Below, in pieces: positions 17,784 through 45,209 of a stretch of DNA of 47,389 nucleotides (within the stretch, counting starts at the first letter, position 1; every line of letters starts with the position of its first letter). This stretch comes from Escherichia coli (GTDB lineage: Bacteria; Pseudomonadota; Gammaproteobacteria; Enterobacterales; Enterobacteriaceae). The translations under genes and the position numbers were made by a program. The notes beneath the pieces were generated by a model, which was not told the DNA's origin, searched no databases, and saw nothing but the letters and a program-made list of their open reading frames with translations. The DNA lies in the NCBI RefSeq assembly GCF_036507355.1, contig NZ_AP027879.1, one strand, 5' to 3'.

Positions 17784-19081
17784 CAACGTTTTCTGCCTCT
17801 GACGCCTCTTTTAATGGTCTCAGATGTCCTTTGGTCACCAGTTCTGCCAGCGTGAAGGAATAATGGCCGAGCATATTGATATGTCCGTGGCAAAGCGGGG
17901 AGAGGCGTGCGATATCTTCATCATTCAGTGTTTCACCCTGCGCCCGGAGATGATCCAGGGCTGCCTGCATATAAATAGTGTTCCATAACACGACGGCGTT
18001 AGTGACCAGCCCCAGTGTGCCCAGTTGATCTTCCTGACCGTCGGTATATCGTTTTCTTATCTCACCTTTTTGACCGTGACAGATGGCTCTGGCAACGGCA
18101 TGGCGACTTTCTCCCCGATTAAGCTGGGTCAGAATGCGCCGGCGGTAATCTTCATCATCAATATAATTAAGCAGATACAGCGTTTTGTTGATGCGCCCCA
18201 CTTCAATGATTGCCTGAGTCAGTCCGGAAGGACGTTCACTTTTCAGCAATGAACGGACCAGCACTGAAACCTGTACTTTGCCCAGCTTCAGGGAGCCAGC
18301 GGTCCGGATCATTTCGTCCCACTGAAGGACTATTTTTCGGGGATCTGATTGCCCTCTGGCAATATCATTCAGCACGCCATAGTCGGCATCATGGTCCATT
18401 CGCCAGAAAACCGAAGCACCGGCATCAGCCAGGCGTGGAGAAAACTGGTATCCCAGCAGCCAGAAAAGGCCAAAGACAAGTTCGCTGGCACCTGCTGTAT
18501 CGGTCATAATTTCGGTTGGATTCAGCCCGGTCTCCTGTTCCAGAAGACCTTCCAGCACAAAGATAGAGTCCCTCAGCGTCCCCGGTATAACGATGCCATG
18601 AAAGCCGGAATACTGATCGGACACAAAGTTGTACCAGGTGATCCCTCTGTTATTACCAAAGTATTTGCGGTTCGGTCCGGCATTGATTGTTCTGACTGGC
18701 GTAACAAAGCGCATTCCATCTGCAGATGCCACTTCTCCTCCACCCCATATCTGTGCCAGTGGCAGCGTTGCCTGAAAATCAACCAGTCTGGCATTAGCGC
18801 TGGTGATAGTTTCAGCCCGCAGATAGTTCGCTTTTGTCCAGTTCAGCCGGTGTCGGGTCAGTGCAGGAACATTTGATCTGATCAGTGGTTCCAGACCGAT
18901 ATTGCAGGCTTCAGCCATCAGCACGGCGCTGATGCTGACGGGCAGATCATCAACTCTGGCACTGGCTTCACTAGCATGGAAAAACTCATCAGCAAATCCG
19001 GTATGGGCGTTAATTTCGAGCAGCAACTCCGTTAAATCCACCGGAGGGAGTAGATCACTGATCATTTTGCTCAGTCGTTTC
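17779..19081 (-). pseudogene. tnpA: Tn3-family transposase TnpA (Tn2/Tn3), 5'-truncated by IS26
   Basis: 435-aa C-terminal portion ending inside the Tn3 IR; N-terminus replaced by IS26. Confidence 0.85.
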
Positions 19082-19901
19082 GGCACTGTTGCAAATAGTC
19101 GGTGGTGATAAACTTATCATCCCCTTTTGCTGATGGAGCTGCACATGAACCCATTCAAAGGCCGGCATTTTCAGCGTGACATCATTCTGTGGGCCGTACG
19201 CTGGTACTGCAAATACGGCATCAGTTACCGTGAGCTGCAGGAGATGCTGGCTGAACGCGGAGTGAATGTCGATCACTCCACGATTTACCGCTGGGTTCAG
19301 CGTTATGCGCCTGAAATGGAAAAACGGCTGCGCTGGTACTGGCGTAACCCTTCCGATCTTTGCCCGTGGCACATGGATGAAACCTACGTGAAGGTCAATG
19401 GCCGCTGGGCGTATCTGTACCGGGCCGTCGACAGCCGGGGCCGCACTGTCGATTTTTATCTCTCCTCCCGTCGTAACAGCAAAGCTGCATACCGGTTTCT
19501 GGGTAAAATCCTCAACAACGTGAAGAAGTGGCAGATCCCGCGATTCATCAACACGGATAAAGCGCCCGCCTATGGTCGCGCGCTTGCTCTGCTCAAACGC
19601 GAAGGCCGGTGCCCGTCTGACGTTGAACACCGACAGATTAAGTACCGGAACAACGTGATTGAATGCGATCATGGCAAACTGAAACGGATAATCAACGCCA
19701 CGCTGGGATTTAAATCCATGAAGACGGCTTACGCCACCATCAAAGGTATTGAGGTGATGCGTGCACTACGCAAAGGCCAGGCCTCAGCATTTTATTATGG
19801 TGATCCCCTGGGCGAAATGCGCCTGGTAAGCAGAGTTTTTGAAATGTAAGGCCTTTGAATAAGACAAAAGGCTGCCTCATCGCTAACTTTGCAACAGTGC
19901 C
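19082..19901 (+). mobile_element. IS26, complete (copy b)
   Basis: 14-bp IRs, 820 bp. Confidence 0.95.
19145..19849 (+). CDS. tnp26: IS26 transposase Tnp26, N at position 184
   Basis: Identical protein to copy a. Confidence 0.95.
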   Translation: MNPFKGRHFQRDIILWAVRWYCKYGISYRELQEMLAERGVNVDHSTIYRWVQRYAPEMEKRLRWYWRNPSDLCPWHMDETYVKVNGRWAYLYRAVDSRGRTVDFYLSSRRNSKAAYRFLGKILNNVKKWQIPRFINTDKAPAYGRALALLKREGRCPSDVEHRQIKYRNNVIECDHGKLKRIINATLGFKSMKTAYATIKGIEVMRALRKGQASAFYYGDPLGEMRLVSRVFEM

Positions 19902-24193: not shown

Positions 24194-24447
24194 GGCACTG
24201 TTGCAAATAGTCGGTGGTGATAAACTTATCATCCCCTTTTGCTGATGGAGCTGCACATGAACCCATTCAAAGGCCGGCATTTTCAGCGTGACATCATTCT
24301 GTGGGCCGTACGCTGGTACTGCAAATACGGCATCAGTTACCGTGAGCTGCAGGAGATGCTGGCTGAACGCGGAGTGAATGTCGATCACTCCACGATTTAC
24401 CGCTGGGTTCAGCGTTATGCGCCTGAAATGGAAAAACGGCTGCGCTG
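24194..24447 (+). mobile_element. IS26 fragment (first about 254 bp including IRL and tnp 5' end)
   Basis: Identical to the IS26 left end; interrupted by inverted complete IS26 copy c. Confidence 0.8.
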
Positions 24448-24448
24448 G

Positions 24449-25268: not shown

Positions 25269-25600
25269 CCGGTAACTATCAACTTGAGTCCAACCCGGAA
25301 AGACACGACAAAACGCCACTGGCAGCAGCCATTAGTAACAGGAGTGCACGAGAAGATAGATTAAGAGGTCTTGAAGTAGAGGCCTGACTGCGGCTACACT
25401 GAAAGAACAGTTTTGGTAATGGCGGTCTCGTGAACCCTGTTACCGGGTTAAGCAGTTCCCCAACTGACTTAACCTTCGAACAAACCGCCTCCCCAGGCGG
25501 TTTTTTCGTTTACAGAGCAAGAGATTACGATTCATTGAAAAGGATCTCAAGAAGATCCTTTGTAGATTACTATCAATTAATCTTCCGAACATGACACCAG
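25269..25600 (+). other. ColE1-type replicon remnant (RNAI/RNAII control region); origin proper deleted by IS26
   Basis: Colinear with the pBR322-type ori region from CGGTAACTATC..TTGAGTCCAACCCGG through AAAGGATCTCAAGAAGATCCTTTG. Confidence 0.5.
25407..25506 (+). ncRNA. RNAI-like antisense RNA of the ColE1-type remnant
   Basis: Position matches RNAI in ColE1-type origins; ends in hairpin plus T-run CCGCCTCCCCAGGCGGTTTTTT. Confidence 0.4.
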
Positions 25601-25846
25601 TCACTGTTGATTACGGTTAAACCGCTCCGTAACAGGTTTCCCTCGTATTGGTGACTTGCAGCACCAAAGAAGCAAAAAAGATAAATATATCTACTTATTG
25701 AGAGATGATATATTTATTTCCAAAATGCTACAGATACATCATCATGAAACGGATCACCGCAAACAGGTTACTCGCCTGGGGATTCCCTTTCGACCCGAGC
25801 ATCCGTATGATACTCATGCTCGATTATTATTATTATAGAAGCCCCC

Positions 25847-26662
25847 ATGAATAAATCGCTCATCATTTTCGGCATCGTCAACATAACCTCGGACAGTTTC
25901 TCCGATGGAGGCCGGTATCTGGCGCCAGACGCAGCCATTGCGCAGGCGCGTAAGCTGATGGCCGAGGGGGCAGATGTGATCGACCTCGGTCCGGCATCCA
26001 GCAATCCCGACGCCGCGCCTGTTTCGTCCGACACAGAAATCGCGCGTATCGCGCCGGTGCTGGACGCGCTCAAGGCAGATGGCATTCCCGTCTCGCTCGA
26101 CAGTTATCAACCCGCGACGCAAGCCTATGCCTTGTCGCGTGGTGTGGCCTATCTCAATGATATTCGCGGTTTTCCAGACGCTGCGTTCTATCCGCAATTG
26201 GCGAAATCATCTGCCAAACTCGTCGTTATGCATTCGGTGCAAGACGGGCAGGCAGATCGGCGCGAGGCACCCGCTGGCGACATCATGGATCACATTGCGG
26301 CGTTCTTTGACGCGCGCATCGCGGCGCTGACGGGTGCCGGTATCAAACGCAACCGCCTTGTCCTTGATCCCGGCATGGGGTTTTTTCTGGGGGCTGCTCC
26401 CGAAACCTCGCTCTCGGTGCTGGCGCGGTTCGATGAATTGCGGCTGCGCTTCGATTTGCCGGTGCTTCTGTCTGTTTCGCGCAAATCCTTTCTGCGCGCG
26501 CTCACAGGCCGTGGTCCGGGGGATGTCGGGGCCGCGACACTCGCTGCAGAGCTTGCCGCCGCCGCAGGTGGAGCTGACTTCATCCGCACACACGAGCCGC
26601 GCCCCTTGCGCGACGGGCTGGCGGTATTGGCGGCGCTGAAAGAAACCGCAAGAATTCGTTAA
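25847..26662 (+). CDS. sul2: Sulfonamide-resistant dihydropteroate synthase Sul2
   Basis: 271 aa starting MNKSLIIFGIVNITSDSFSDGG. Confidence 0.95.
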   Translation: MNKSLIIFGIVNITSDSFSDGGRYLAPDAAIAQARKLMAEGADVIDLGPASSNPDAAPVSSDTEIARIAPVLDALKADGIPVSLDSYQPATQAYALSRGVAYLNDIRGFPDAAFYPQLAKSSAKLVVMHSVQDGQADRREAPAGDIMDHIAAFFDARIAALTGAGIKRNRLVLDPGMGFFLGAAPETSLSVLARFDELRLRFDLPVLLSVSRKSFLRALTGRGPGDVGAATLAAELAAAAGGADFIRTHEPRPLRDGLAVLAALKETARIR

Positions 26663-26722
26663 CTGCACATTCGGGATATTTCTCTATATTCGCGCTTCAT
26701 CAGAAAACTGAAGGAACCTCCA

Positions 26723-27526
26723 TTGAATCGAACTAATATTTTTTTTGGTAAATCGCATTCTGACTGGTTGCCTGTCAGAGGCGGAGAATCTGGTGATTTT
26801 GTTTTTCGACGTGGTGACGGGCATGCCTTCGCGAAAATCGCACCTGCTTCCCGCCGCGGTGAGCTCGCTGGAGAGCGTGACCGCCTCATTTGGCTCAAAG
26901 GTCGAGGTGTGGCTTGCCCCGAGGTCATCAACTGGCAGGAGGAACAGGAGGGTGCATGCTTGGTGATAACGGCAATTCCGGGAGTACCGGCGGCTGATCT
27001 GTCTGGAGCGGATTTGCTCAAAGCGTGGCCGTCAATGGGGCAGCAACTTGGCGCTGTTCACAGCCTATCGGTTGATCAATGTCCGTTTGAGCGCAGGCTG
27101 TCGCGAATGTTCGGACGCGCCGTTGATGTGGTGTCCCGCAATGCCGTCAATCCCGACTTCTTACCGGACGAGGACAAGAGTACGCCGCAGCTCGATCTTT
27201 TGGCTCGTGTCGAACGAGAGCTACCGGTGCGGCTCGACCAAGAGCGCACCGATATGGTTGTTTGCCATGGTGATCCCTGCATGCCGAACTTCATGGTGGA
27301 CCCTAAAACTCTTCAATGCACGGGTCTGATCGACCTTGGGCGGCTCGGAACAGCAGATCGCTATGCCGATTTGGCACTCATGATTGCTAACGCCGAAGAG
27401 AACTGGGCAGCGCCAGATGAAGCAGAGCGCGCCTTCGCTGTCCTATTCAATGTATTGGGGATCGAAGCCCCCGACCGCGAACGCCTTGCCTTCTATCTGC
27501 GATTGGACCCTCTGACTTGGGGTTGA
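26723..27526 (+). CDS. strA: Aminoglycoside 3''-phosphotransferase APH(3'')-Ib
   Basis: 267 aa; classic sul2-strA-strB order. Confidence 0.95.
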   Translation: MNRTNIFFGKSHSDWLPVRGGESGDFVFRRGDGHAFAKIAPASRRGELAGERDRLIWLKGRGVACPEVINWQEEQEGACLVITAIPGVPAADLSGADLLKAWPSMGQQLGAVHSLSVDQCPFERRLSRMFGRAVDVVSRNAVNPDFLPDEDKSTPQLDLLARVERELPVRLDQERTDMVVCHGDPCMPNFMVDPKTLQCTGLIDLGRLGTADRYADLALMIANAEENWAAPDEAERAFAVLFNVLGIEAPDRERLAFYLRLDPLTWG

Positions 27527-28362
27527 TGTTCATGCCGCCTGTTTTTCCTGCTCATTGGCACGTTTCGCAACCTGTTCTCATTGCGGACACCTTTTCCAGC
27601 CTCGTTTGGAAAGTTTCATTGCCAGACGGGACTCCTGCAATCGTCAAGGGATTGAAACCTATAAAAGACATTGCTGATGAACTGCGCGGGGCCGACTATC
27701 TGGTATGGCGCAATGGGAGGGGAGCAGTCCGGTTGCTCGGTCGTGAGAACAATCTGATGTTGCTCGAATATGCCGGGGAGCGAATGCTCTCTCACATCGT
27801 TGCCGAGCACGGCGACTACCAGGCGACCGAAATTGCAGCGGAACTAATGGCGAAGCTGTATGCCGCATCTGAGGAACCCCTGCCTTCTGCCCTTCTCCCG
27901 ATCCGGGATCGCTTTGCAGCTTTGTTTCAGCGGGCGCGCGATGATCAAAACGCAGGTTGTCAAACTGACTACGTCCACGCGGCGATTATAGCCGATCAAA
28001 TGATGAGCAATGCCTCGGAACTGCGTGGGCTACATGGCGATCTGCATCATGAAAACATCATGTTCTCCAGTCGCGGCTGGCTGGTGATAGATCCCGTCGG
28101 TCTGGTCGGTGAAGTGGGCTTTGGCGCCGCCAATATGTTCTACGATCCGGCTGACAGAGACGACCTTTGTCTCGATCCTAGACGCATTGCACAGATGGCG
28201 GACGCATTCTCTCGTGCGCTGGACGTCGATCCGCGTCGCCTGCTCGACCAGGCGTACGCTTATGGGTGCCTTTCCGCAGCTTGGAACGCGGATGGAGAAG
28301 AGGAGCAACGCGATCTAGCTATCGCGGCCGCGATCAAGCAGGTGCGACAGACGTCATACTAG
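27526..28362 (+). CDS. strB: Aminoglycoside 6-phosphotransferase APH(6)-Id
   Basis: 278 aa from MFMPPVFPAHW; 1-bp overlap with the strA stop. Confidence 0.95.
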   Translation: MFMPPVFPAHWHVSQPVLIADTFSSLVWKVSLPDGTPAIVKGLKPIKDIADELRGADYLVWRNGRGAVRLLGRENNLMLLEYAGERMLSHIVAEHGDYQATEIAAELMAKLYAASEEPLPSALLPIRDRFAALFQRARDDQNAGCQTDYVHAAIIADQMMSNASELRGLHGDLHHENIMFSSRGWLVIDPVGLVGEVGFGAANMFYDPADRDDLCLDPRRIAQMADAFSRALDVDPRRLLDQAYAYGCLSAAWNADGEEEQRDLAIAAAIKQVRQTSY

Positions 28363-28387
28363 ATATCAAGCGACTTCTCCTATCCCC

Positions 28388-28468
28388 TGGGAACACATCA
28401 ATCTCACCGGAGAATATCGCTGGCCAAAGCCTTAGCGTAGGATTCCGCCCCTTCCCGCAAACGACCCC
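28388..28468. repeat. Tn5393-type 81-bp terminal inverted repeat downstream of strB
   Basis: Reverse complement begins GGGGTCGTTTGCGGGAAGGGG. Confidence 0.5.
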
Positions 28469-28717
28469 TTTCTGGCGCGTTTGCAGGGCCATAGACGGCC
28501 GCCAGCCCAGCGGCGAGGGCAACCAGCCCGGTGAGCGTCGGAAAGGCGCTGGAAGCCCCGTAGCGACGCGGAGAGGGGCGAGACAAGCCAAGGGCGCAGG
28601 CTCGATGCGCAGCACGACATAGCCGGTTCTCGCAAGGACGAGAATTTCCCTGCGGTGCCCCTCAAGTGTCAATGAAAGTTTCCAACGCGAGCCATTCGCG
28701 AGAGCCTTGAGTCCACG
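28469..28717. other. Short non-coding segment joining the strB/IR end to the tet module; origin uncertain (contains GCCCCTCAAGTGTCA)
   Basis: No ORF; ends exactly where tetR-upstream sequence begins without a Tn1721 IR. Confidence 0.3.
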
Positions 28718-29032
28718 CTAGATCTATCTCATCTGCGCAAGGCAGAACGTGAAGACGGCCGCCCTGGACCTCGCCCGCGAGCGCCAGGCGCACGAGGCCG
28801 GCGCGCGGACCCGCGCCACGGCCCACGAGCGGACGCCGCAGCAGGAGCGCCAGAAGGCCGCCAGAGAGGCCGAGCGCGGCCGTGAGGCTTGGACGCTAGG
28901 GCAGGGCATGAAAAAGCCCGTAGCGGGCTGCTACGGGCGTCTGACGCGGTGGAAAGGGGGAGGGGATGTTGTCTACATGGCTCTGCTGTAGTGAGTGGGT
29001 TGCGCTCCGGCAGCGGTCCTGAGCGGTCCTGA

Positions 29033-29683
29033 TCAATCGTCACCCTTTCTCGGTCCTTCAACGTTCCTGACAACGAGCCTCCTTTTCGCCAATCCATCGA
29101 CAATCACCGCGAGTCCCTGCTCGAACGCTGCGTCCGGACGGGCTTCGTCGAAGGCGTCTATCGCGGCCCGCAACAGCGGCGAGAGCGGAGCCTGTTCAAC
29201 GGTGCCGCCGCGCTCGCCGGCATCGCTGTCGCCGGCCTGCTCCTCAAGCACGGCCCCAACAGTGAAGTAGCTGATTGTCATCAGCGCATTGACGGCGTCC
29301 CCGGCCGAAAAACCCGCCTCGCAGAGGAAGCGAAGCTGCGCGTCGGCCGTTTCCATCTGCGGTGCGCCCGGTCGCGTGCCGGAATGGATGCGCGCGCCAT
29401 CGCGGTAGGCGAGCAGCGCCTGCCTGAAGCTGCGGGCATTCCCGATCAGAAATGAGCGCCAGTCGTCGTCGGCTCTCGGCACCGAATGCGTATGATTCTC
29501 CGCCAGCATGGCTTCGGCCAGTGCGTCGAGCAGCGCCCGCTTGTTCCTGAAGTGCCAGTAAAGCGCCGGCTGCTGAACCCCCAACCGTTCCGCCAGTTTG
29601 CGTGTCGTCAGACCGTCTACGCCGACCTCGTTCAACAGGTCCAGGGCGGCACGGATCACTGTATTCGGCTGCAACTTTGTCAT
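29033..29683 (-). CDS. tetR: Tetracycline repressor TetR, class A (variant copy)
   Basis: 216 aa from MTKLQPNTVIRAALDLL; differs from the second copy at two residues. Confidence 0.95.
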   Translation of the reverse strand: MTKLQPNTVIRAALDLLNEVGVDGLTTRKLAERLGVQQPALYWHFRNKRALLDALAEAMLAENHTHSVPRADDDWRSFLIGNARSFRQALLAYRDGARIHSGTRPGAPQMETADAQLRFLCEAGFSAGDAVNALMTISYFTVGAVLEEQAGDSDAGERGGTVEQAPLSPLLRAAIDAFDEARPDAAFEQGLAVIVDGLAKRRLVVRNVEGPRKGDD

Positions 29684-29692
29684 GCTTGACAC

Positions 29693-29788
29693 TTTATCAC
29701 TGATAAATATAATATGTCCACCAACTTATCAGTGATAAAGAATCCGCGCGTTCAATCGGACCAGCGGAGGCTGGTCCGGAGGCCAGAC
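29693..29788. promoter_or_regulatory. tetR/tetA divergent promoter region with tet operator palindromes
   Basis: ACTTTATCACTGATAAA and CTTATCAGTGATAAAG between the divergent genes. Confidence 0.7.
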
Positions 29789-30988
29789 GTGAAACCCAAC
29801 AGACCCCTGATCGTAATTCTGAGCACTGTCGCGCTCGACGCTGTCGGCATCGGCCTGATTATGCCGGTGCTGCCGGGCCTCCTGCGCGATCTGGTTCACT
29901 CGAACGACGTCGCCGCCCACTATGGCATTCTGCTGGCGCTGTATGCGTTGATGCAATTTGCCTGCGCACCTGTGCTGGGTGCGCTGTCGGATCGTTTCGG
30001 GCGGCGGCCGGTCTTGCTCGTCTCGCTGGCCGGCGCTGCTGTCGACTACGCCATCATGGCGACGGCGCCTTTCCTTTGGGTTCTCTATATCGGGCGGATC
30101 GTGGCCGGCATCACCGGGGCGACTGGGGCGGTAGCCGGCGCTTATATTGCCGATATCACTGATGGCGATGAGCGCGCGCGGCACTTCGGCTTCATGAGCG
30201 CCTGTTTCGGGTTCGGGATGGTCGCGGGACCTGTGCTCGGTGGGCTGATGGGCGGTTTCTCCCCCCACGCTCCGTTCTTCGCCGCGGCAGCCTTGAACGG
30301 CCTCAATTTCCTGACGGGCTGTTTCCTTTTGCCGGAGTCGCACAAAGGCGAACGCCGGCCGTTACGCCGGGAGGCTCTCAACCCGCTCGCTTCGTTCCGG
30401 TGGGCCCGGGGCATGACCGTCGTCGCCGCCCTGATGGCGGTCTTCTTCATCATGCAACTTGTCGGACAGGTGCCGGCCGCGCTTTGGGTCATTTTCGGCG
30501 AGGATCGCTTTCACTGGGACGCGACCACGATCGGCATTTCGCTTGCCGCATTTGGCATTCTGCATTCACTCGCCCAGGCAATGATCACCGGCCCTGTAGC
30601 CGCCCGGCTCGGCGAAAGGCGGGCACTCATGCTCGGAATGATTGCCGACGGCACAGGCTACATCCTGCTTGCCTTCGCGACACGGGGATGGATGGCGTTC
30701 CCGATCATGGTCCTGCTTGCTTCGGGTGGCATCGGAATGCCGGCGCTGCAAGCAATGTTGTCCAGGCAGGTGGATGAGGAACGTCAGGGGCAGCTGCAAG
30801 GCTCACTGGCGGCGCTCACCAGCCTGACCTCGATCGTCGGACCCCTCCTCTTCACGGCGATCTATGCGGCTTCTATAACAACGTGGAACGGGTGGGCATG
30901 GATTGCAGGCGCTGCCCTCTACTTGCTCTGCCTGCCGGCGCTGCGTCGCGGGCTTTGGAGCGGCGCAGGGCAACGAGCCGATCGCTGA
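29789..30988 (+). CDS. tetA: Tetracycline efflux MFS pump TetA, class A (variant copy)
   Basis: 399 aa from GTG at VKPNRPLIVILSTVALDAVGIG; three aa differences from the second copy. Confidence 0.95.
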   Translation: MKPNRPLIVILSTVALDAVGIGLIMPVLPGLLRDLVHSNDVAAHYGILLALYALMQFACAPVLGALSDRFGRRPVLLVSLAGAAVDYAIMATAPFLWVLYIGRIVAGITGATGAVAGAYIADITDGDERARHFGFMSACFGFGMVAGPVLGGLMGGFSPHAPFFAAAALNGLNFLTGCFLLPESHKGERRPLRREALNPLASFRWARGMTVVAALMAVFFIMQLVGQVPAALWVIFGEDRFHWDATTIGISLAAFGILHSLAQAMITGPVAARLGERRALMLGMIADGTGYILLAFATRGWMAFPIMVLLASGGIGMPALQAMLSRQVDEERQGQLQGSLAALTSLTSIVGPLLFTAIYAASITTWNGWAWIAGAALYLLCLPALRRGLWSGAGQRADR

Positions 30989-31359
30989 TAGAGGTTTATA
31001 GCGGCTTCGTTCCCTTCCGCAACCGTCAGCATGATCTGCTCCACATGCTCGCGGCCATAGTCTATCACCGCCCGCAGCAGCATACCGGCGACCCCTCGGC
31101 CTCGCTGTTCGGGCTCCACGAAAACGCCGGACAGATGCGCCTTGTGAGCGTCCTTGGGGCCGTCCTCCTGTTTGAAGACCGACAGCCCAATGATCTCGCC
31201 GTCGATGTAGGCGCCGAATGCCACGGCATCTCGCAACCGTTCAGCGAACGCCTCCATGGGCTTTTTCTCCTCGTGCTCGTAAACGGACCCGAACATCTCT
31301 GGAGCTTTCTTCAGGGCCGACAATCGGATCTCGCCGAAATGCCTGCCGTTGCTAGACAT
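30989..31359 (-). pseudogene. GNAT-family N-acetyltransferase, 3'-truncated at the tetA boundary
   Basis: First about 123 codons GNAT-like (QRGRGVAGMLLRAVIDYGRE); frame continues into antisense tetA. Confidence 0.5.
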
Positions 31360-31364
31360 TGCCA

Positions 31365-31847
31365 GCCAGTGCCCGTCACTCCCGTACTAACTGTCACGAA
31401 CCCCTGCAATAACTGTCACGCCCCCCTGCAATAACTGTCACGAACCCCTGCAATAACTGTCACGCCCCCAAACCTGCAAACCCAGCAGGGGCGGGGGCTG
31501 GCGGGGTGTTGGAAAAATCCATCCATGATTATCTAAGAATAATCCACTAGGCGCGGTTATCAGCGCCCTTGTGGGGCGCTGCTGCCCTTGCCCAATATGC
31601 CCGGCCAGAGGCCGGATAGCTGGTCTATTCGCTGCGCTAGGCTACACACCGCCCCACCGCTGCGCGGCAGGGGGAAAGGCGGGCAAAGCCCGCTAAACCC
31701 CACACCAAACCCCGCAGAAATACGCTGGAGCGCTTTTAGCCGCTTTAGCGGCCTTTCCCCCTACCCGAAGGGTGGGGGCGCGTGTGCAGCCCCGCAGGGC
31801 CTGTCTCGGTCGATCATTCAGCCCGGCTCATCCTTCTGGCGTGGCGG
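31365..31847. other. IncQ1 (RSF1010-type) oriV fragment with direct iterons, GC-rich and AT-rich segments
   Basis: Iterons CTGTCACGAACCCCTGCAATAA at about 31386-31470, then GC-rich block and AT-rich CCATCCATGATTATCTAAGAATAATCC; identification from recalled RSF1010 sequence. Confidence 0.55.
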
Positions 31848-32770
31848 ATGATAACGGCCAGCATGGCGTCCAGAACGTCCAATGCATCATCCAGCGCCAG
31901 CGTTTCCCATGCAAGGACAAAGGCAACCAGAACCGCCATCCTTTTCTGCGGTGACATCCTGGCAATATTGAACACCGAAGTCATACCAGCATAACGTGCG
32001 AGATTTTTCAGGCGCACAGCCGGGAGTGTACTCAGGTTTTCAGCATGCAGGCCAAAATCGTTCAGAGTTTTCCAGCGTTCAATTGCTTCATTAAACGCCG
32101 GACCACTGATGGTCACAGGGCCCTTTTTCAGTGATTCCAGTAAAGACAGGCGGCTGCAATCAGTTGGCCCCAGCAGCATCTCCAGCTGTGAACGCTGTTC
32201 GGCTGACGGTATCAGTGCCAGTTTGTTCCACAGGCGCAACGTCGCCTTTTCCCTTACCTCTGAAATCAACCGGGTCAGCGTAGTGGCTCCGGGGAGAATA
32301 ATACGATGTTGCATAAGCCACCCTGTCGCCAGATCGAAAAGCAGGCCAGGACGTTCGTTGCTTATCCAGCTCCGGGTATATAAAAGACGGGTAAGGCGAA
32401 ATGTCCAGGGCCAGGCAAATTCACGATACTGATAGTGCTGACGTATCAGCGCTGCATGCTCACGGCGGGTATTTTCCCTCTGACCGTATTCTGCAAGAAC
32501 GGTGATATCACGAATCCCGAGCTGTCTGGCGGTAAAATGCCGGACGCCGGAAGGAATATGATTCATATCGGTGAGGAAGGTGCCCAGAAAACGGACACAT
32601 CCAATTTGCAGGGCAATGCCCAGACGGTTGTGATCACCTCTGCTTTTTCCGATAAATTCCTTGTCTGCTTCATCAAGGTGAAAATATCGTGCCAGCTGAA
32701 GCTCATCCGGTTCACCGGTGAATCTGCCATAGCTTTCAGTCTGCTCAGTGGTCAGAAAGTCAACGGGCAT
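31848..32770 (-). pseudogene. tnpA: Tn2/Tn3 transposase TnpA, N-terminal about 307 codons only (3'-truncated)
   Basis: MPVDFLTTEQTESYGRFTGEPDELQLARYFHL...; frame runs into oriV-fragment sequence. Confidence 0.85.
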
Positions 32771-33491
<721 letters not shown>

Positions 33492-33603
33492 TACGCCTAT
33501 TTTTATAGGTTAATGTCATGATAATAATGGTTTCTTAGACGTCAGGTGGCACTTTTCGGGGAAATGTGCGCGGAACCCCTATTTGTTTATTTTTCTAAAT
33601 ACA

Positions 33604-33632
33604 TTCAAATATGTATCCGCTCATGAGACAAT
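33604..33632 (+). promoter_or_regulatory. blaTEM P3-type promoter (-35 TTCAAA, 17-bp spacer, -10 GACAAT)
   Basis: Hexamers located about 40 bp upstream of the blaTEM start. Confidence 0.5.
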
Positions 33633-33661
33633 AACCCTGGTAAATGCTTCAATAATATTGA

Positions 33662-34534
<873 letters not shown>

Positions 34535-34643
34535 CTGTCAGACCAAGTTTACTCATATATACTTTAGATTGATTTAAAACTTCATTTTTAATTTAAAAGG
34601 ATCTAGGTGAAGATCCTTTTTGATAATCTCATGACCAAAATCC

Positions 34644-34681
34644 CTTAACGTGAGTTTTCGTTCCACTGAGCGTCAGACCCC
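34644..34681. repeat. Tn3/Tn2 right 38-bp inverted repeat
   Basis: CTTAACGTGAGTTTTCGTTCCACTGAGCGTCAGACCCC. Confidence 0.85.
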
Positions 34682-34791
34682 TATGATTACCCTCTTAGTA
34701 ACAGTTCGAAAGATCCAGACCTAAGTCAAGTACGCCAACACAACTTCAGAGCAAGTATAGCATATTCATTTAGAAAGCTAAAAAAATAAAA

Positions 34792-35583
34792 CTAACCTAG
34801 GGCTTTGGATATTTTCAAGGCATCTGATAAAGACTTAACATCATGGGTGCGGAGATAATCTGCACCTTTTTTGTATGCATACATTTCTGCTGCAAGAGTT
34901 GGTGCTAAACGAGATTTCACATCGGTTCCAGTTATTTTACCTAAGAATGATTTCCGTGACACTGCAATCATTACTTGCAAATTAAAAGCTTCTTGAATTT
35001 CAGGGAAACGCTTCAAAACAAGAATAGATGTTTCTGGATTAGAGCCTAAAAAGAAGCCCATACCCGGATCAAGAATAATTCGTTCACGCTTTACACCAGC
35101 CTCAACTAAAGCAGCAATTCTTTCTTTAAAAAATTCCATCATGGAAGTAAAAACCTCTTCCGGATTCGTTTCAACTTTAGTAGCTGCACCAATTCGCTGA
35201 ACGGAGTGCATCAACACAAGTTTGCAATCTGACTTTGCCAAGCCTGAATAAATCTCAGGATAAGGAAAACCTTGAATATCATTAATAAAATCAACCTTTT
35301 GTTCTATGCAAAAACTCTGAACCTCAGGTTTAAATGTATCAACAGAAATAGAAATGCCTTTTTCTTTTAAAGCCTTAATGACAGGTTTGAGTCTTTTGAT
35401 TTCTTCCACAACGCCCACTTCAGTTGTATCAGGATTACTGGAAGCGGCTCCCAAATCAATCACATCTGCTCCATCTTCAACCAAATGCAGAGCATGCTCA
35501 ATTGCCTTATCTGTATCTAAATAAAGTCCTCCATCGGAAAAACTATCGGTGGTTATATTTACGATTCCAAAAATCTTGCTCAT
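34792..35583 (-). CDS. sul3: Sulfonamide-resistant dihydropteroate synthase Sul3
   Basis: 263 aa, AT-rich, MSKIFGIVNITTDSFSDGG; flanked by SDR gene, MFS fragment and IS26. Confidence 0.85.
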   Translation of the reverse strand: MSKIFGIVNITTDSFSDGGLYLDTDKAIEHALHLVEDGADVIDLGAASSNPDTTEVGVVEEIKRLKPVIKALKEKGISISVDTFKPEVQSFCIEQKVDFINDIQGFPYPEIYSGLAKSDCKLVLMHSVQRIGAATKVETNPEEVFTSMMEFFKERIAALVEAGVKRERIILDPGMGFFLGSNPETSILVLKRFPEIQEAFNLQVMIAVSRKSFLGKITGTDVKSRLAPTLAAEMYAYKKGADYLRTHDVKSLSDALKISKALG

Positions 35584-36051
35584 ATCATTTTGCTTTGATT
35601 ACAAAAGTAGCATTTATCTTAATTGACTAATTATCACTTACGCAAATTGACACATTTTCCCTATCTTTGCAGCCTAATTTTTTTGTTTTAATTCATTATG
35701 AAAACTGATAGGAACTGTCATTTCGAGTTTTTCGCGGTTTTGGGTCAAAATTCGGTTTTTTCCCCGAACTACGACTGTTTTCGCACCCCGAACAACTAAT
35801 CCAATCAGAATTTTCCGGCAACGCCGACTCCAAGAAGTGTAATTCCAGTCTATTTCTGCCGTCAACCCCTGATTCGCGTTAATGCGACAAAGCTCAAACA
35901 CATAACTCCCCCACGAAGCCATATAAACTCCGATTTCGAGGTGTTATCCTGTTCCGCATAAACTTCGTTTTTGGGTATTATACCTACACCAAAGCAAGAA
36001 GATTATGGGTCCAAACTTCATTTGTATATTTTGCAAACAAATATCTGCCTG

Positions 36052-36297
36052 TCATATCTGTCGGAGTGTGGTGATACTCCTTTGCATTAAAAATGCGCTG
36101 ATAAAAGGTAGTTCAGCAAAAGGCGAAACGCCAATAAATATATCTATAACCGGTTTCGCCCGTTGATTGGGTATCGCCGTGCTTCCGATATGTTCAATGG
36201 CTACGGCATGAGAACCGAAAAAATGGAGCAATTTTATTTTCTCTTCTTCAAAATTCTTTGTCCAATCCGGGTTATATTCCATAATTTCAATTTTCAT
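36052..36297 (-). pseudogene. GrpB-like (UPF0157) N-terminal fragment
   Basis: 81-aa ORF with GSTAIP motif; much shorter than full-length family members. Confidence 0.3.
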
Positions 36298-36334
36298 GAT
36301 AGTTTCGTCCTTGCCTCAAAAACCATGTTTGGTA

Positions 36335-37198
36335 TTATACTCCATATCTCTCCGGTGCAGGAATAGCCTTTTCTGATGCACGGCTAACAGCTTCCCATTC
36401 TTCCCAGGTAGCCATCCGTGCTTTTAAGGTATCCATCGCCAAATCGTATACCATGCTGCCAAGGATAAGCCTCAAAGGCGGATTATTGCTGGCTACTAAT
36501 TTCATAAGGGCTTCCGCTGCCAAGGAAGGATCACTATCGACCGAATCTTCGGAATACTGTTTCGCCAGCTCATCGCGCAGTGTACCGTATGAATCTAATG
36601 GATTGCTGTAACTCATCGAAGTGTATAAATCTGTCCAATATCCTCCTGGTTCCACCATAGTGAGTTTCACTCCGAAATGTTCCGCTTCTTTTGCTAAGGC
36701 TTCACTCATTCCTTCCAGCGCAAATTTACTTGCACTGTAAATACCAGACATCGGACCCGAGATAATAGCGCCAATGCTTGTAATCTGTATGATATGTCCA
36801 GAACGCTGCGACCTCAAATAGGGCATCACTGCCTGACAAACCCAAAGAGCTCCAAAAAAGTTTGTGTCCATTAGTTTCCGAGCATCGGATTCGTTTAGTT
36901 CTTCAATCATACCCATAGTCATGATACCCGCATTATTAACAACAATATCAAGCCTACCGAAATGTTTAACTGCTGTTTCAACCGTAGAAAAAACAGCCTC
37001 CCTATCTGTAACATCGAGGTTTAATGGCAGTAAGCTCTCTTGATATGTTTCTTCTAGCTTCGCCAAATTATCGATAGTCCTTGCAACTGCAACAACTTTA
37101 TCCCCGGCTTTCAAGGCGGCGCATGTAAAAGCATAGCCAAGCCCCTTGCTTGCTCCGGTAATAAACCATACTCTTTTATTTTCGCTATTAGGTATCAT
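36335..37198 (-). CDS. Short-chain dehydrogenase/reductase (SDR)
   Basis: 287 aa; TGASKGLG Rossmann motif and YSASK catalytic motif. Confidence 0.75.
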   Translation of the reverse strand: MIPNSENKRVWFITGASKGLGYAFTCAALKAGDKVVAVARTIDNLAKLEETYQESLLPLNLDVTDREAVFSTVETAVKHFGRLDIVVNNAGIMTMGMIEELNESDARKLMDTNFFGALWVCQAVMPYLRSQRSGHIIQITSIGAIISGPMSGIYSASKFALEGMSEALAKEAEHFGVKLTMVEPGGYWTDLYTSMSYSNPLDSYGTLRDELAKQYSEDSVDSDPSLAAEALMKLVASNNPPLRLILGSMVYDLAMDTLKARMATWEEWEAVSRASEKAIPAPERYGV

Positions 37199-37326
37199 AG
37201 ATATTCTCCTTTAGGCTATTATAGAAAGATTATTATAAGCGAAATTAATACCGTTAAACGCCATGAGCCCGACAATTTTGAGCACTTTGTTTTGTACTCC
37301 CAGAAGCTCACTACTACAAATTATCA

Positions 37327-37595
37327 TCAACCCGGTCCTTTTTTCAGTCCACTTGCGGTTTTCATTGTTACTTTGTCATAGCGTCGTGTCAGAATGCGGC
37401 AGAGAACAGCGTTTACTATCAACGCAACACCAGACCAGAAAAACCATGTATTAACACCTATAACCTCAACAACCGGACCTGCAACAAGTAAGCCTATCGG
37501 CATAGAAAGAGTCATGGCGGTCATCAAAAGGGAAAACACCTTGCCCATCATTTCAGGGGCAATGCTTTCTTGAACATAAGCCATAACAGGAACAT
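37327..37595 (-). pseudogene. mefB: MFS efflux pump C-terminal fragment (likely mef(B)), 5'-truncated by IS26
   Basis: Hydrophobic TM-like C-terminus; frame opens at the IS26 boundary. Confidence 0.45.
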
Positions 37596-38415
37596 GGCAC
37601 TGTTGCAAAGTTAGCGATGAGGCAGCCTTTTGTCTTATTCAAAGGCCTTACATTTCAAAAACTCTGCTTACCAGGCGCATTTCGCCCAGGGGATCACCAT
37701 AATAAAATGCTGAGGCCTGGCCTTTGCGTAGTGCACGCATCACCTCAATACCTTTGATGGTGGCGTAAGCCGTCTTCATGGATTTAAATCCCAGCGTGGC
37801 GCCGATTATCCGTTTCAGTTTGCCATGATCGCATTCAATCACGTTGTTCCGGTACTTAATCTGTCGGTGTTCAACGTCAGACGGGCACCGGCCTTCGCGT
37901 TTGAGCAGAGCAAGCGCGCGACCATAGGCGGGCGCTTTATCCGTGTTGATGAATCGCGGGATCTGCCACTTCTTCACGTTGTTGAGGATTTTACCCAGAA
38001 ACCGGTATGCAGCTTTGCTGTTACGACGGGAGGAGAGATAAAAATCGACAGTGCGGCCCCGGCTGTCGACGGCCCGGTACAGATACGCCCAGCGGCCATT
38101 GACCTTCACGTAGGTTTCATCCATGTGCCACGGGCAAAGATCGGAAGGGTTACGCCAGTACCAGCGCAGCCGTTTTTCCATTTCAGGCGCATAACGCTGA
38201 ACCCAGCGGTAAATCGTGGAGTGATCGACATTCACTCCGCGTTCAGCCAGCATCTCCTGCAGCTCACGGTAACTGATGCCGTATTTGCAGTACCAGCGTA
38301 CGGCCCACAGAATGATGTCACGCTGAAAATGCCGGCCTTTGAATGGGTTCATGTGCAGCTCCATCAGCAAAAGGGGATGATAAGTTTATCACCACCGACT
38401 ATTTGCAACAGTGCC
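37596..38415 (-). mobile_element. IS26, complete (copy d)
   Basis: 14-bp IRs, 820 bp. Confidence 0.95.
37648..38352 (-). CDS. tnp26: IS26 transposase Tnp26, G at position 184
   Basis: [10 protein letters not shown]. Confidence 0.95.
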   Translation of the reverse strand: MNPFKGRHFQRDIILWAVRWYCKYGISYRELQEMLAERGVNVDHSTIYRWVQRYAPEMEKRLRWYWRNPSDLCPWHMDETYVKVNGRWAYLYRAVDSRGRTVDFYLSSRRNSKAAYRFLGKILNNVKKWQIPRFINTDKAPAYGRALALLKREGRCPSDVEHRQIKYRNNVIECDHGKLKRIIGATLGFKSMKTAYATIKGIEVMRALRKGQASAFYYGDPLGEMRLVSRVFEM

Positions 38416-38598
38416 GTCCTGCGAATATGTGAGTTTTGACCTAATGAGCCACAAAAACTCATTTTCGCCCACGATAATTTTTCTACTTCCTTTCTTTGGA
38501 ATGCTCATTTCAATATTCACATAACGTCGCTATCAATCGCGGAAAAGGCGTAGTGCGCGAAGCGAACGAAGCTTTTTGCCGTCGATTGCATAGCTTTG
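38416..38598 (-). other. Region downstream of the dfrA cassette, expected to hold its attC; truncated by IS26
   Basis: Position between dfrA stop and IS26; attC not delimited. Confidence 0.3.
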
Positions 38599-39081
38599 TT
38601 AACCCTTTTTCCAAATTTGATAGCAATAGTTAATGTTTGAAGTAAAGTGTTGCTCAAAAACAACTTCGAAGGTATTTGGAATACTCGGGAAGAAAACATC
38701 CCCCTCTGGCTCGATGTCGATCGTCGATAAGTGGAGCGTAGAGGCCATGGGTAATGTTTCTCGGTAAATTTCTCCGCCACCAGACACTATAACGTGACCG
38801 GTGAATTCAGCTAGCCTGTCCATGGCCTCTTCGATTGACTGAAATACAACTACATTGTCATCATTTGATGTCCAACCTGAGCGGGTAACGACCGCGTATT
38901 TCCTATTGGGGAGTGCGCCCATAGATTCAAACGTCTTGCGACCCACCAGAAGCCACTGATTGTAGGTCAATGCTTTAAAAAGTAGCTGCTCCCCTTTCGC
39001 GGACCAGGGTATGTCTGGACCGCAACCAATCACGCCGTTTTTCGCTTTCGCAGCCATCAATGATACTTTCAAGGTTCTCAT
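38599..39081 (-). CDS. dfrA14: Trimethoprim-resistant dihydrofolate reductase DfrA (dfrA14/dfrA5 group)
   Basis: 160-aa ORF; type B DHFR; allele assignment from recalled sequence is tentative. Confidence 0.8.
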
Positions 39082-39227
39082 CCTGGGTTAACTTTGTTTT
39101 AGGGCGACTGCCCTGCTGCGTAACATCGTTGCTGCTCCATAACATCAAACATCGACCCACGGCGTAACGCGCTTGCTGCTTGGATGCCCGAGGCATAGAC
39201 TGTACAAAAAAACAGTCATAACAAGCC
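39082..39227. promoter_or_regulatory. attI1 recombination site region of a class 1 integron
   Basis: GCCCTAAAACAAAGTTAACC between intI1 start and the first cassette. Confidence 0.6.
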
Positions 39228-40233
39228 ATGAAAACCGCCACTGCGCCGTTACCACCGCTGCGTTCGGTCAAGGTTCTGGACCAGTTGCGTGAGCGCATAC
39301 GCTACTTGCATTACAGTTTACGAACCGAACAGGCTTATGTCCACTGGGTTCGTGCCTTCATCCGTTTCCACGGTGTGCGTCACCCGGCAACCTTGGGCAG
39401 CAGCGAAGTCGAGGCATTTCTGTCCTGGCTGGCGAACGAGCGCAAGGTTTCGGTCTCCACGCATCGTCAGGCATTGGCGGCCTTGCTGTTCTTCTACGGC
39501 AAGGTGCTGTGCACGGATCTGCCCTGGCTTCAGGAGATCGGAAGACCTCGGCCGTCGCGGCGCTTGCCGGTGGTGCTGACCCCGGATGAAGTGGTTCGCA
39601 TCCTCGGTTTTCTGGAAGGCGAGCATCGTTTGTTCGCCCAGCTTCTGTATGGAACGGGCATGCGGATCAGTGAGGGTTTGCAACTGCGGGTCAAGGATCT
39701 GGATTTCGATCACGGCACGATCATCGTGCGGGAGGGCAAGGGCTCCAAGGATCGGGCCTTGATGTTACCCGAGAGCTTGGCACCCAGCCTGCGCGAGCAG
39801 CTGTCGCGTGCACGGGCATGGTGGCTGAAGGACCAGGCCGAGGGCCGCAGCGGCGTTGCGCTTCCCGACGCCCTTGAGCGGAAGTATCCGCGCGCCGGGC
39901 ATTCCTGGCCGTGGTTCTGGGTTTTTGCGCAGCACACGCATTCGACCGATCCACGGAGCGGTGTCGTGCGTCGCCATCACATGTATGACCAGACCTTTCA
40001 GCGCGCCTTCAAACGTGCCGTAGAACAAGCAGGCATCACGAAGCCCGCCACACCGCACACCCTCCGCCACTCGTTCGCGACGGCCTTGCTCCGCAGCGGT
40101 TACGACATTCGAACCGTGCAGGATCTGCTCGGCCATTCCGACGTCTCTACGACGATGATTTACACGCATGTGCTGAAAGTTGGCGGTGCCGGAGTGCGCT
40201 CACCGCTTGATGCGCTGCCGCCCCTCACTAGTG
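39228..40233 (+). CDS. intI1: Class 1 integron integrase IntI1, last two codons and stop replaced by IS26
   Basis: [27 protein letters not shown]...; native frame ends at LDALPPLTS where IS26 begins. Confidence 0.9.
39315..39343 (-). promoter_or_regulatory. Integron cassette promoter Pc, PcH1-type (-35 TGGACA, -10 TAAACT)
   Basis: Hexamers on the cassette strand inside the intI1 5' coding region, 17-bp spacing. Confidence 0.6.
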
Positions 40234-41053
40234 GGCACTGTTGCAAAGTTAGCGATGAGGCAGCCTTTTGTCTTATTCAAAGGCCTTACATTTCAAAAAC
40301 TCTGCTTACCAGGCGCATTTCGCCCAGGGGATCACCATAATAAAATGCTGAGGCCTGGCCTTTGCGTAGTGCACGCATCACCTCAATACCTTTGATGGTG
40401 GCGTAAGCCGTCTTCATGGATTTAAATCCCAGCGTGGCGCCGATTATCCGTTTCAGTTTGCCATGATCGCATTCAATCACGTTGTTCCGGTACTTAATCT
40501 GTCGGTGTTCAACGTCAGACGGGCACCGGCCTTCGCGTTTGAGCAGAGCAAGCGCGCGACCATAGGCGGGCGCTTTATCCGTGTTGATGAATCGCGGGAT
40601 CTGCCACTTCTTCACGTTGTTGAGGATTTTACCCAGAAACCGGTATGCAGCTTTGCTGTTACGACGGGAGGAGAGATAAAAATCGACAGTGCGGCCCCGG
40701 CTGTCGACGGCCCGGTACAGATACGCCCAGCGGCCATTGACCTTCACGTAGGTTTCATCCATGTGCCACGGGCAAAGATCGGAAGGGTTACGCCAGTACC
40801 AGCGCAGCCGTTTTTCCATTTCAGGCGCATAACGCTGAACCCAGCGGTAAATCGTGGAGTGATCGACATTCACTCCGCGTTCAGCCAGCATCTCCTGCAG
40901 CTCACGGTAACTGATGCCGTATTTGCAGTACCAGCGTACGGCCCACAGAATGATGTCACGCTGAAAATGCCGGCCTTTGAATGGGTTCATGTGCAGCTCC
41001 ATCAGCAAAAGGGGATGATAAGTTTATCACCACCGACTATTTGCAACAGTGCC
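40234..41053 (-). mobile_element. IS26, complete (copy e)
   Basis: 14-bp IRs, 820 bp. Confidence 0.95.
40286..40990 (-). CDS. tnp26: IS26 transposase Tnp26, G at position 184
   Basis: Same protein as copy d. Confidence 0.95.
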
Positions 41054-41869
41054 CCGTTCAGCACCCGCGTGGTGAATGTCGGCGTCCGCGATTCCACCTA
41101 TGTGCTCGACGGCCTGCTGTACCACGAGTCCGACCTGCGGATCGAGGAGCACTACACCGACACGGCCGGCTTCACCGATCACGTCTTTGCCCTGATGCAC
41201 CTGCTAGGCTTCCGCTTCGCGCCGCGCATCCGCGACCTCGGCGAAACCAAGCTGTACGTGCCGCAGGGCGTGCAAGCCTACCCGACGTTGCGCCCGCTGA
41301 TCGGCGGCACCCTGAACATCAAGCACGTGCGTGCCCACTGGGACGACATCCTGCGCCTGGCCAGCTCGATCAAGCAGGGCACCGTCACCGCCTCGCTGAT
41401 GCTGCGCAAGCTCGGCAGCTACCCGCGCCAGAACGGACTGGCCGTGGCCCTGCGCGAGCTGGGCCGGATCGAGCGCACGCTGTTCATCCTGGACTGGCTG
41501 CAAAGTGTTGAACTGCGCCGCCGCGTGCATGCCGGCCTGAACAAAGGTGAGGCGCGCAACTCGCTGGCCAGGGCGGTGTTCTTCAACCGCCTTGGGGAAA
41601 TCAGGGATCGGAGCTTCGAGCAGCAGCGCTACCGGGCCAGCGGCCTCAACCTGGTGACGGCGGCTATCGTGCTGTGGAACACGGTGTACCTGGAACGCGC
41701 CACCCAGGGGTTGGTCGAGGCCGGCAAGCCGGTGGACGGCGAGCTGCTGCAATTCCTGTCGCCGCTGGGCTGGGAGCACATCAACCTAACCGGCGATTAC
41801 GTCTGGCGGCAGAGCCGCAGACTGGAAGACGGGAAGTTTCGGCCCTTACGGATGCCCGGAAAACCTTAG
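41054..41869 (+). pseudogene. tnpA: Tn1721-type TnpA, 3' 271 codons only (5'-truncated by IS26)
   Basis: Identical to the C-terminal part of the fragment at 45595-47357; ends in the Tn1721 IR. Confidence 0.8.
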
Positions 41870-41902
41870 CGTACGATTTTTTCCGAATTCTGCGGGCTCC
41901 CC
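41865..41902. repeat. Tn1721 38-bp inverted repeat (internal IR preceding the tet module)
   Basis: Reverse complement GGGGAGCCCGCAGAATTCGGAAAAAATCGTACGCTAAG. Confidence 0.8.
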
Positions 41903-42200
41903 TATCTCATCTGCGCAAGGCAGAACGTGAAGACGGCCGCCCTGGACCTCGCCCGCGAGCGCCAGGCGCACGAGGCCGGCGCGCGGACCCGCGCCACGGC
42001 CCACGAGCGGACGCCGCAGCAGGAGCGCCAGAAGGCCGCCAGAGAGGCCGAGCGCGGCCGTGAGGCTTGGACGCTAGGGCAGGGCATGAAAAAGCCCGTA
42101 GCGGGCTGCTACGGGCGTCTGACGCGGTGGAAAGGGGGAGGGGATGTTGTCTACATGGCTCTGCTGTAGTGAGTGGGTTGCGCTCCGGCAGCGGTCCTGA

Positions 42201-42851: not shown

Positions 42852-42860
42852 GCTTGACAC

Positions 42861-42956
42861 TTTATCACTGATAAACATAATATGTCCACCAACTTATCAG
42901 TGATAAAGAATCCGCGCGTTCAATCGGACCAGCGGAGGCTGGTCCGGAGGCCAGAC
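42861..42956. promoter_or_regulatory. tetR/tetA divergent promoter and operators
   Basis: Same operator palindromes as in copy 1. Confidence 0.7.
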
Positions 42957-44156: not shown

Positions 44157-44187
44157 TCGTGGAAACGATAGGCCTATGCCATGCGGG

Positions 44188-45072: not shown

Positions 45073-45209
45073 GCGATTACAAGACCTCCGCTACGGCGAT
45101 GGGTTTTTGAGAGTTGCAGGCGCCGCGATGACCGCACCCTGACTTGGACTGGCCCTGCCTCGCACCAATCCACCTGCGGCTATGGCCGCGATCATGCGAG
45201 GCCCGAAAA

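Follow-up and report, generated by a model that had tools for sequence, protein, structure and literature searches.

The window analyzed here, a circular Escherichia coli plasmid record of 47,389 bp (RefSeq contig NZ_AP027879.1), carries two copies of tetR-tetA(A), the gene pair for a class A tetracycline repressor and efflux pump. The two modules are very probably independent descendants of one old tetR-tetA(A) that were brought in on two preassembled resistance segments, which were joined within the transposon Tn2. Copy 2 is a remnant of Tn1721 and not an active transposon. Copy 1, which lies beside strA-strB and an RSF1010 origin fragment, appears from its flanking sequences to belong to a non-Tn1721 lineage with IncP-1-type flanks, rather than being a trimmed Tn1721. 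Carriage of two tet(A) copies is ordinary for such plasmids, and both forms are common and already published. The only addition made here is an explanation of why the two copies start at the same base, together with the identification of copy 1 as a lineage separate from Tn1721.

When the window was compared with itself by BLAST, the modules gave a single alignment in direct orientation (28724-30989 against 41902-44157). The alignment has 2,266 columns and is 99.2% identical, with mismatches at 8 positions and a single gap of 10 bp; a 2.26-kb repeat at such identity is no chance match. An initial annotation, made from the sequence without database searches, had described two diverged modules arranged as direct repeats about 13 kb apart and had proposed aligning them, since identical copies would point to an assembly duplication. 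The copies are not identical and are therefore no such duplication, and their offset is 13,178 bp on the left of the indel and 13,168 bp on its right. All four genes are intact, with both TetA and both TetR proteins scoring above the curated NCBIfam cutoffs (840 bits for Tet(A) and 265 bits for TetR) and matching database entries called Tet(A) and TetR(A) exactly or almost exactly. In both copies, tetR and tetA diverge around a common operator region.

Each part of the window that holds a module matches an independently published plasmid. Positions 25269 to 34681 (9,413 bp) are 100% identical to p16EC-IncN from a pig E. coli isolate in China, and positions 32682 to 47389 (14,708 bp) are 99.97% identical to pTB31P1 from Escherichia fergusonii, likewise from China. 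These two stretches overlap in the tnpR-blaTEM-1 part of Tn2. Neither PLSDB nor a set of 5426 complete genomes of E. coli contains the full two-copy arrangement.

The differences between the copies were polarized against five other plasmids and an outgroup, a tetR-tetA module from an Enterobacter IncHI2 plasmid (NZ_CP091482.1, 5945-8241; hereafter L005) that is ~93% identical to the common tet(A) module. TetA differs at three residues in 399-residue numbering (T42A belongs to copy 1, A93T and G374S to copy 2) and TetR differs at two (copies 1 and 2 have S and A, respectively, at residue 101, and R and D, respectively, at residue 182). Substitutions outside these residues are synonymous (29980) or intergenic (29708). 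The two copies carry different changes in the codon for TetR G182 (29139-29140 and 42307-42308): copy 1 encodes arginine there, and copy 2 encodes aspartate. The 10-bp duplication that accounts for the gap, TetR A101S, and TetR G182R occur only in copy 1 and p16EC-IncN, and 29708T, TetA T42A, and 29980T are shared by copy 1, p16EC-IncN, and a third plasmid, p16EC-p0111. TetR G182D and TetA A93T are common to copy 2 and pTB31P1, and TetA G374S is present in copy 2 only. Exact-protein look-ups placed the copy 1 TetA on 997 contigs and the copy 1 TetR on 63, whereas the copy 2 TetR is on at least 1000 contigs and the copy 2 TetA on a single contig of 47,389 bp, presumably this record. We read the substitutions mostly as markers of two widespread lineages, TetA G374S being the exception, and not as divergence that took place within the plasmid. 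The few residue differences reported initially in both proteins are thus real, with the refinement that most of them would be lineage markers.

Copy 2 has the Tn1721 layout that had been assigned to it. An exact 38-bp inverted repeat (IR) of the Tn21 subgroup is followed by tetR, tetA, pecM, a partial tnpA, and a second IR. The IR query was the reverse complement of GGGGAGCCCGCAGAATTCGGAAAAAATCGTACGCTAAG, which we take to be the Tn1721 IR sequence. An 851-bp repeat (41051-41901 and 46539-47389; one mismatch, 99.9% identity) places a tnpA 3′ end before each IR. The outer IR reaches its last base only at base 1 of the window, which makes the record a circle whose origin falls within this repeat. 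The complete Tn1722 half of the transposon (mcp, res, tnpR, tnpA, and the left inverted repeat, IRL) is not present, as it is truncated by the IS26 copy at 40234-41053.

Copy 1 lacks both an adjoining Tn1721 IR and a downstream pecM, as had been annotated. A search of its surroundings that allowed up to 4 mismatches found no Tn1721 IR nearby, and a fragment of a GNAT acetyltransferase gene occupies the place of pecM. The sequence shared with copy 2 begins at 28724, with a one-base ambiguity in that this C is also the final base of the IR. The initial annotation correctly had copy 1 start at the base that follows the IR in copy 2, but its coordinate, 28718, is about 6 bp too far left. To the left of this point is a 255-bp flank that is not part of Tn1721. 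The junction of this flank with the tetR side (28624-28823) is intact and free of an IR in at least 1114 of the 3414 PLSDB records that match any part of it. The same flank stands directly before tetR-tetA-pecM, again without an IR, in pKJK5, pSal6919a, and p16EC-p0111. KSB1_5D likewise has the flank ahead of tetR-tetA and no IR. In pKJK5, pSal6919a, and KSB1_5D, which are unrelated plasmids, the flank extends to the left of 28469 with one common sequence, which differs from the Tn5393 end found at this position in the window. Furthermore, the alignment with the diverged L005 module runs from 28573 across the 28723|28724 boundary at 84% identity. L005 is also missing ~144 bp upstream of tetR and has a shikimate dehydrogenase gene downstream of tetR-tetA.

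Since the 255-bp flank stays associated with tet(A) leftward of the boundary, this boundary is best understood as the insertion point of a Tn1722 end and not as the product of a precise IR loss. Homology between the copies would start where it does because the Tn1722 end, the IR, interrupts older sequence there in copy 2. The initial description of copy 1 as starting after "where the IR would be" therefore holds for the shared base, but not if it is taken to mean that an IR was precisely lost, given that the older flank continues for 255 bp. Position 28468|28469 appears to be a Tn5393 insertion point in the same older sequence. RSF1010 identity stops at the outer Tn5393 end (28468), and an inverted partial copy of strB elsewhere in the window (11871-12688) ends there too. 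We take the length of this Tn5393 terminal inverted repeat to be 81 bp. The flank also contains TGACACTTGAGGGGC (28657-28671, minus strand), presumably an IncP-1 oriV iteron, and two further repeats resembling it lie in the extended flank of pKJK5-type plasmids. A search of the open-access literature found no paper stating this flank argument.

At the right end, homology between the copies stops one base past the tetA TGA codon (30986-30988 and 44154-44156), which agrees with the earlier statement that copy 1 ends at the tetA stop. Here the internal fragment of the GNAT gene is fused to the antisense strand of the tetA 3′ end. A tblastn search with a Sinorhizobium homologue (P0035) gave 90% identity over residues 17 to 135, and the NCBIfam GNAT model also matches. 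A look-up of the genes around this full-length homologue returned no entry. The tetA|GNAT junction was found in 87 plasmid records. An identical junction occurs in another contig, L009, in which the GNAT gene still has its 5′ end and borders on a trfA fragment, a context that looks IncP-1/RK2-like. L005 follows the copy 2 (Tn1721) sequence for 47 bp beyond the tetA stop, so the order with pecM probably came first and the GNAT junction arose by deletion afterward. An ancestral tetA-pecM-GNAT order could have left the 3′ end of the GNAT gene beside pecM in copy 2; it was looked for there and not found.

The setting of copy 1 was compared with pRSF1010_SL1344, which served as the native RSF1010 reference. 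Matches extend over 25748-28468 (sul2, strA, strB, and the Tn5393 end, with 99.9% identity over strA-strB) and over 31333-31847 (oriV), in keeping with the initial placement of copy 1 beside strAB and an IncQ-type oriV. The 2,864 bp between them (28469-31332) stand in place of 473 unrelated bp of RSF1010. We considered a clean insertion into RSF1010 and discarded it in view of this replacement and because no record has both flanks adjacent to each other. The possibility that the GNAT fragment is itself RSF1010 DNA was ruled out by sequence comparison. An RSF1010/IncQ1 replicon would have repA, repB, repC, and mob in addition to the oriV iterons; no rep or mob genes are present, and therefore the RSF1010 part is a fragment and not a second replicon. 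Approximately 54 bp at the point where RSF1010 resumes (31330-31383) are also found in more than 3000 plasmid records beside lysR/floR-ISCR2 modules. This stretch is probably an ISCR2 terminus, and an inverted copy lies near floR in p16EC-IncN.

From these comparisons, we propose the following course of events. In the segment that contributed copy 2, a Tn1722-end IR would have come to lie left of the module, with pecM, the partial tnpA, and an IR after tetA, and IS26 would have removed the remainder of the transposon. In the segment that contributed copy 1, an RP1/RK2-like form would have kept the older flank, iteron included, as far as the Tn5393 (strAB) insertion point, and loss of pecM would have brought the tetA stop against the GNAT fragment. 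Recombination in Tn2 would then have joined these two known resistance segments, each carrying its own tet(A).

Other histories can be imagined for the same arrangement. Surveys routinely call every tet(A) gene Tn1721-derived (e.g., PMC7407071), and copy 1 could accordingly be seen as a Tn1721 fragment from which one deletion precisely removed the IR and another removed pecM, particularly as the homology begins right after the IR and ends one base past the tetA stop. However, a precise IR deletion could not restore flank sequence, and it is the flank that is found with tet(A) and without an IR in at least 1114 plasmids, that runs further left in pKJK5-type plasmids, and that a diverged tet(A) lineage conserves at 84% through the place where the IR would be. 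We therefore give this account very little probability. A duplication of the module inside the plasmid, followed by divergence of the copies, would be in line with their being direct repeats in one replicon, but it deserves next to no credence: 7 of the 8 substitutions, as well as the indel, are shared with plasmids holding only one form, and the flanks of the copies are unrelated.

An assembly artefact, whether from placing one repeat a second time or from merging two plasmids in a single contig, is quite improbable as well. Repeat-rich resistance regions misassemble readily, the whole arrangement recurs in no other PLSDB record or complete E. coli genome, and one TetA substitution is unique to this record. 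Against these points stand the 8 differing positions and the indel, flanks that are unlike on both sides, and the matches of the two parts to independent plasmids (100% and 99.97% over 9.4 and 14.7 kb), which overlap by 2 kb in Tn2. In addition, the two ends of the record meet precisely inside the Tn1721 IR to complete a circle. Some observations nevertheless count against parts of the two-segment history that we favor. The RP1/RK2 link of the right junction comes from one 2.9-kb read-assembly contig (L009), which could derive from an RK2-based vector, and the order of age of the pecM and GNAT arrangements is inferred from only 47 bp in one outgroup. TetA G374S (position 44076), which is in no other record, may be a sequencing error. 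Finally, p16EC-p0111, whose architecture is that expected after a deletion between the two copies (see below), could instead have preceded the two-copy form or have arisen by recombination between plasmids.

As a tetracycline/H+ antiporter, TetA pumps tetracycline-metal complexes out of the cell and lets protons in. Dimers of TetR keep the divergent promoters repressed by occupying two operators located between tetR and tetA, and they leave these operators once tetracycline has bound. Both copies are predicted to function in this usual class A manner. Since their control regions differ at one base, either TetR should regulate both pumps, and the presence of two intact modules would double the gene dosage. 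A deletion by RecA-dependent recombination between the copies would span 13,178 bp for a crossover on the left side of the 10-bp duplication and 13,168 bp for one on its right side; the same stretch might instead be amplified. Such a deletion would remove the oriV fragment, blaTEM-1, sul3, dfrA14, and intI1 and leave the order strB-flank-tetR-tetA-pecM-partial tnpA-IR. The initial annotation had raised both outcomes and named sul3, blaTEM, and dfrA as the genes at risk; sul3, blaTEM-1, and dfrA14 do lie between the copies, and we infer that deletion or amplification by this route is plausible.

The architecture predicted for the deletion product is seen in p16EC-p0111, which, judging by its name, shares its isolate of origin with p16EC-IncN. 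The two allele sets are combined into a mosaic in the p16EC-p0111 tet module, which shows that such modules recombine in nature but does not indicate the direction of change. Because this common architecture is indistinguishable from that of an ancestral form or an inter-plasmid recombinant, it does not establish that a two-copy plasmid underwent the deletion. Three IS26 elements that share one orientation (24449, 37596, and 40234) offer a competing and equally likely route for loss of the same genes. The open-access search also found no paper on tet(A) amplification through tet-tet recombination.

The intergenic substitution in copy 1 falls in the tetA promoter. With T at 29708 (a C-to-T change; position 42876 in copy 2), the tetA strand reads TTGACA-16-TATAAT and matches 12 of 12 consensus positions; copy 2 and other alleles have a CATAAT −10 box and match 11 of the 12 sigma-70 consensus positions. 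The T allele, searched as an exact 59-mer, is present in 30 of the 4124 plasmid records that have the region. The tetA|GNAT junction is also present in many of these 30 records, among them small IncQ1-type plasmids and the Edwardsiella plasmid pEIB202. TetR A101S is next to a residue that we take to be the inducer-binding histidine. It is conceivable, although unlikely, that the copy 1 lineage represents an adapted tet(A) allele (perfect −10 box, TetA T42A, TetR A101S and G182R) and not a neutral variant. If expression or induction were altered in this way, the cell would have mixed TetR dimers acting on two promoters of unequal strength, which could shift resistance to newer tetracyclines. 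The effect of the copy 1 promoter and repressor variants on expression would be cheap to test. We also considered the tigecycline-associated tet(A) variant as the source of the differences between the copies and rejected it. Both TetA proteins have ASF at residues 201 to 203, presumably the Tn1721 type, and because the copies are identical at these residues, the differences between them are unrelated to that variant.

TABLE 1 Positions of the resistance genes, tet modules, and mobile element parts in the window
Feature	Position	Strand	Remarks
sul2	25847-26662	+	NCBIfam Sul2, 615 bits (cutoff 575)
strA	26723-27526	+	NCBIfam APH(3'')-Ib, 636 bits
strB	27526-28362	+	NCBIfam APH(6)-I, 384 bits
Tn5393 terminal inverted repeat, 3′ of strB	28388-28468		Outer end at 28468
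Copy 1 left flank	28469-28723		255 bp; not in Tn1721
Copy 1 tetR-tetA(A) module	28724-30989		100% identical to p16EC-IncN
10-bp tandem duplication, AGCGGTCCTG x2	29012-29031		Copy 1; one base past tetR stop
tetR(A), copy 1	29033-29683	-	216 amino acids; A101S, G182R; NCBIfam TetR, 301.4 bits
Divergent promoter/operator region, copy 1	29684-29788		105-bp spacer
tetA(A), copy 1	29789-30988	+	399 amino acids from GTG; T42A; NCBIfam Tet(A), 890.2 bits
GNAT acetyltransferase gene, internal fragment	30990-31332	-	About residues 17-135 of a 165-amino-acid protein
RSF1010 (IncQ1) oriV fragment	31333-31847		100% identical to pRSF1010_SL1344 2254-2768; iterons at ~31385-31470
Truncated Tn2	31848-34681		
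Tn2 tnpA, 5′ part	31814-32929 (open reading frame)	-	
Tn2 tnpR	Within open reading frame 32898-33491	+	
blaTEM-1	33674-34534	+	
Region with sul3, then SDR gene	34792-41053		sul3 at 34792-35583, strand -
IS26	37596-38415		
dfrA14	Within open reading frame 38599-39081	-	
intI1	39228-40233		Cut by IS26
IS26	40234-41053		
Tn1721/Tn1722 tnpA, 3′ end	41054-41864	+	811 bp; cut by IS26 at 41053; Tn3-transposase profile positions 697-954 of 954
Tn1721 inner IR	41865-41902		38 bp; exact match; module follows directly, first base 41903
Copy 2 tetR-tetA module	41903-44157		
tetR, copy 2	42201-42851	-	216 amino acids; G182D; NCBIfam TetR, 304.7 bits
tetA, copy 2	42957-44156	+	399 amino acids from GTG; A93T, G374S; NCBIfam Tet(A), 888.6 bits
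pecM (EamA-family transporter)	44188-45072	-	
Partial tnpA duplicate	45537-47357	+	Tn3-transposase profile positions 384-954 of 954
Tn1721 outer IR	47353-47389 plus base 1		Continues across the origin of the circular record

An IncX1-like backbone makes up the first 12 kb of the record. It contains a tandem array (7835-8370), located between an IS1 and an IS5-like element, with 14.5 copies of the 37-bp unit AAGGTGGGCGGATTCCCACACGGCACCGGCGCGCGGC at 94% matches, and a stretch 96% identical to the array adjoins a replication gene in p16EC-IncN. A 300-bp direct repeat (8862-9161 and 10937-11236; 95% identity) is also located in the backbone. The inverted partial strB with its Tn5393 end (11871-12688; 818 bp, 99% identical to 27651-28468) abuts the IS26 copy at 12689. 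Five full IS26 copies are present in total, at 12689, 19082 (inverted), 24449, 37596, and 40234, and 255-bp partial IS26 pieces (24194-24448 and 19079-19336) adjoin full copies.

As a whole, the plasmid is a further mosaic of published modules from Asian livestock-associated Enterobacteriaceae and in this respect has little practical import. The annotation of strB-side tet(A) genes does matter for tracing the spread of tet(A). A tet(A) adjoining strB or RSF1010 sequence retains DNA that is absent from Tn1721 and for this reason should not be annotated as a Tn1721 remnant. About a third of tet(A) plasmids have the non-Tn1721 flank, and they may be routinely mislabeled as holding Tn1721 fragments. 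Given the 2.26-kb repeats and the three IS26 copies in the same orientation, the block with blaTEM-1, sul3, and dfrA14 would be prone to loss or amplification, and both the resistance phenotypes and the short-read assemblies of such isolates may be unstable.

Among known systems, the copy 2 region (41054-47389 plus base 1) is to be compared with Tn1721, for which three 38-bp IRs, a partial duplication of tnpA, and the order pecM-tetA-tetR have been published (PMC6205034). The region resembles Tn1721 in its 38-bp IRs, gene order, and duplicated tnpA 3′ end. It differs in that IS26 has removed mcp, res, tnpR, and most of tnpA, and in the substitutions TetR G182D and TetA A93T, as in pTB31P1, and TetA G374S, which is unique.

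The closest counterpart of the copy 1 region is pSTU288-2 (CP004059), an IncQ1 plasmid with sul2-strA-strB-tetR-tetA. IncQ1 plasmids carrying strAB, tetAR, and sul2 are a described group (PMC9008345). Positions 28300 to 31847 align with pSTU288-2 from end to end at 99.4 to 100% identity, and the two share the junction of the Tn5393 end with the flank (28468|28469), the tetA|GNAT junction, and the GNAT|RSF1010 junction at ~31332|31333. Unlike pSTU288-2, the window holds a fragment without repA, repC, and mob, upstream of which lie IS26 and a floR-ISCR2 remnant. Copy 1 is further distinguished by five more substitutions and the 10-bp duplication, all of which are found in p16EC-IncN.

More distant likenesses are provided by IncC and IncP-1 plasmids. 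ARI-B islands of IncC plasmids and an 8.4-kb spA-type plasmid of Shigella and E. coli have strB, the Tn5393 end, part of the flank, and tetR-tetA in the same order. These forms are without 28470-28548, leave the window sequence at 30960, which is 28 bp before the tetA end, and have no GNAT fragment. In pKJK5 (IncP-1) and pSal6919a, flank-tetR-tetA-pecM lies within the tni region of a class 1 integron. Both have the same flank from 28469 and no Tn1721 IR, and their module is 99.4% identical to copy 1 and 99.9% identical to copy 2. They differ from the copy 1 region in having a longer left flank with two more iteron-like repeats, in keeping pecM, and in lacking Tn5393.

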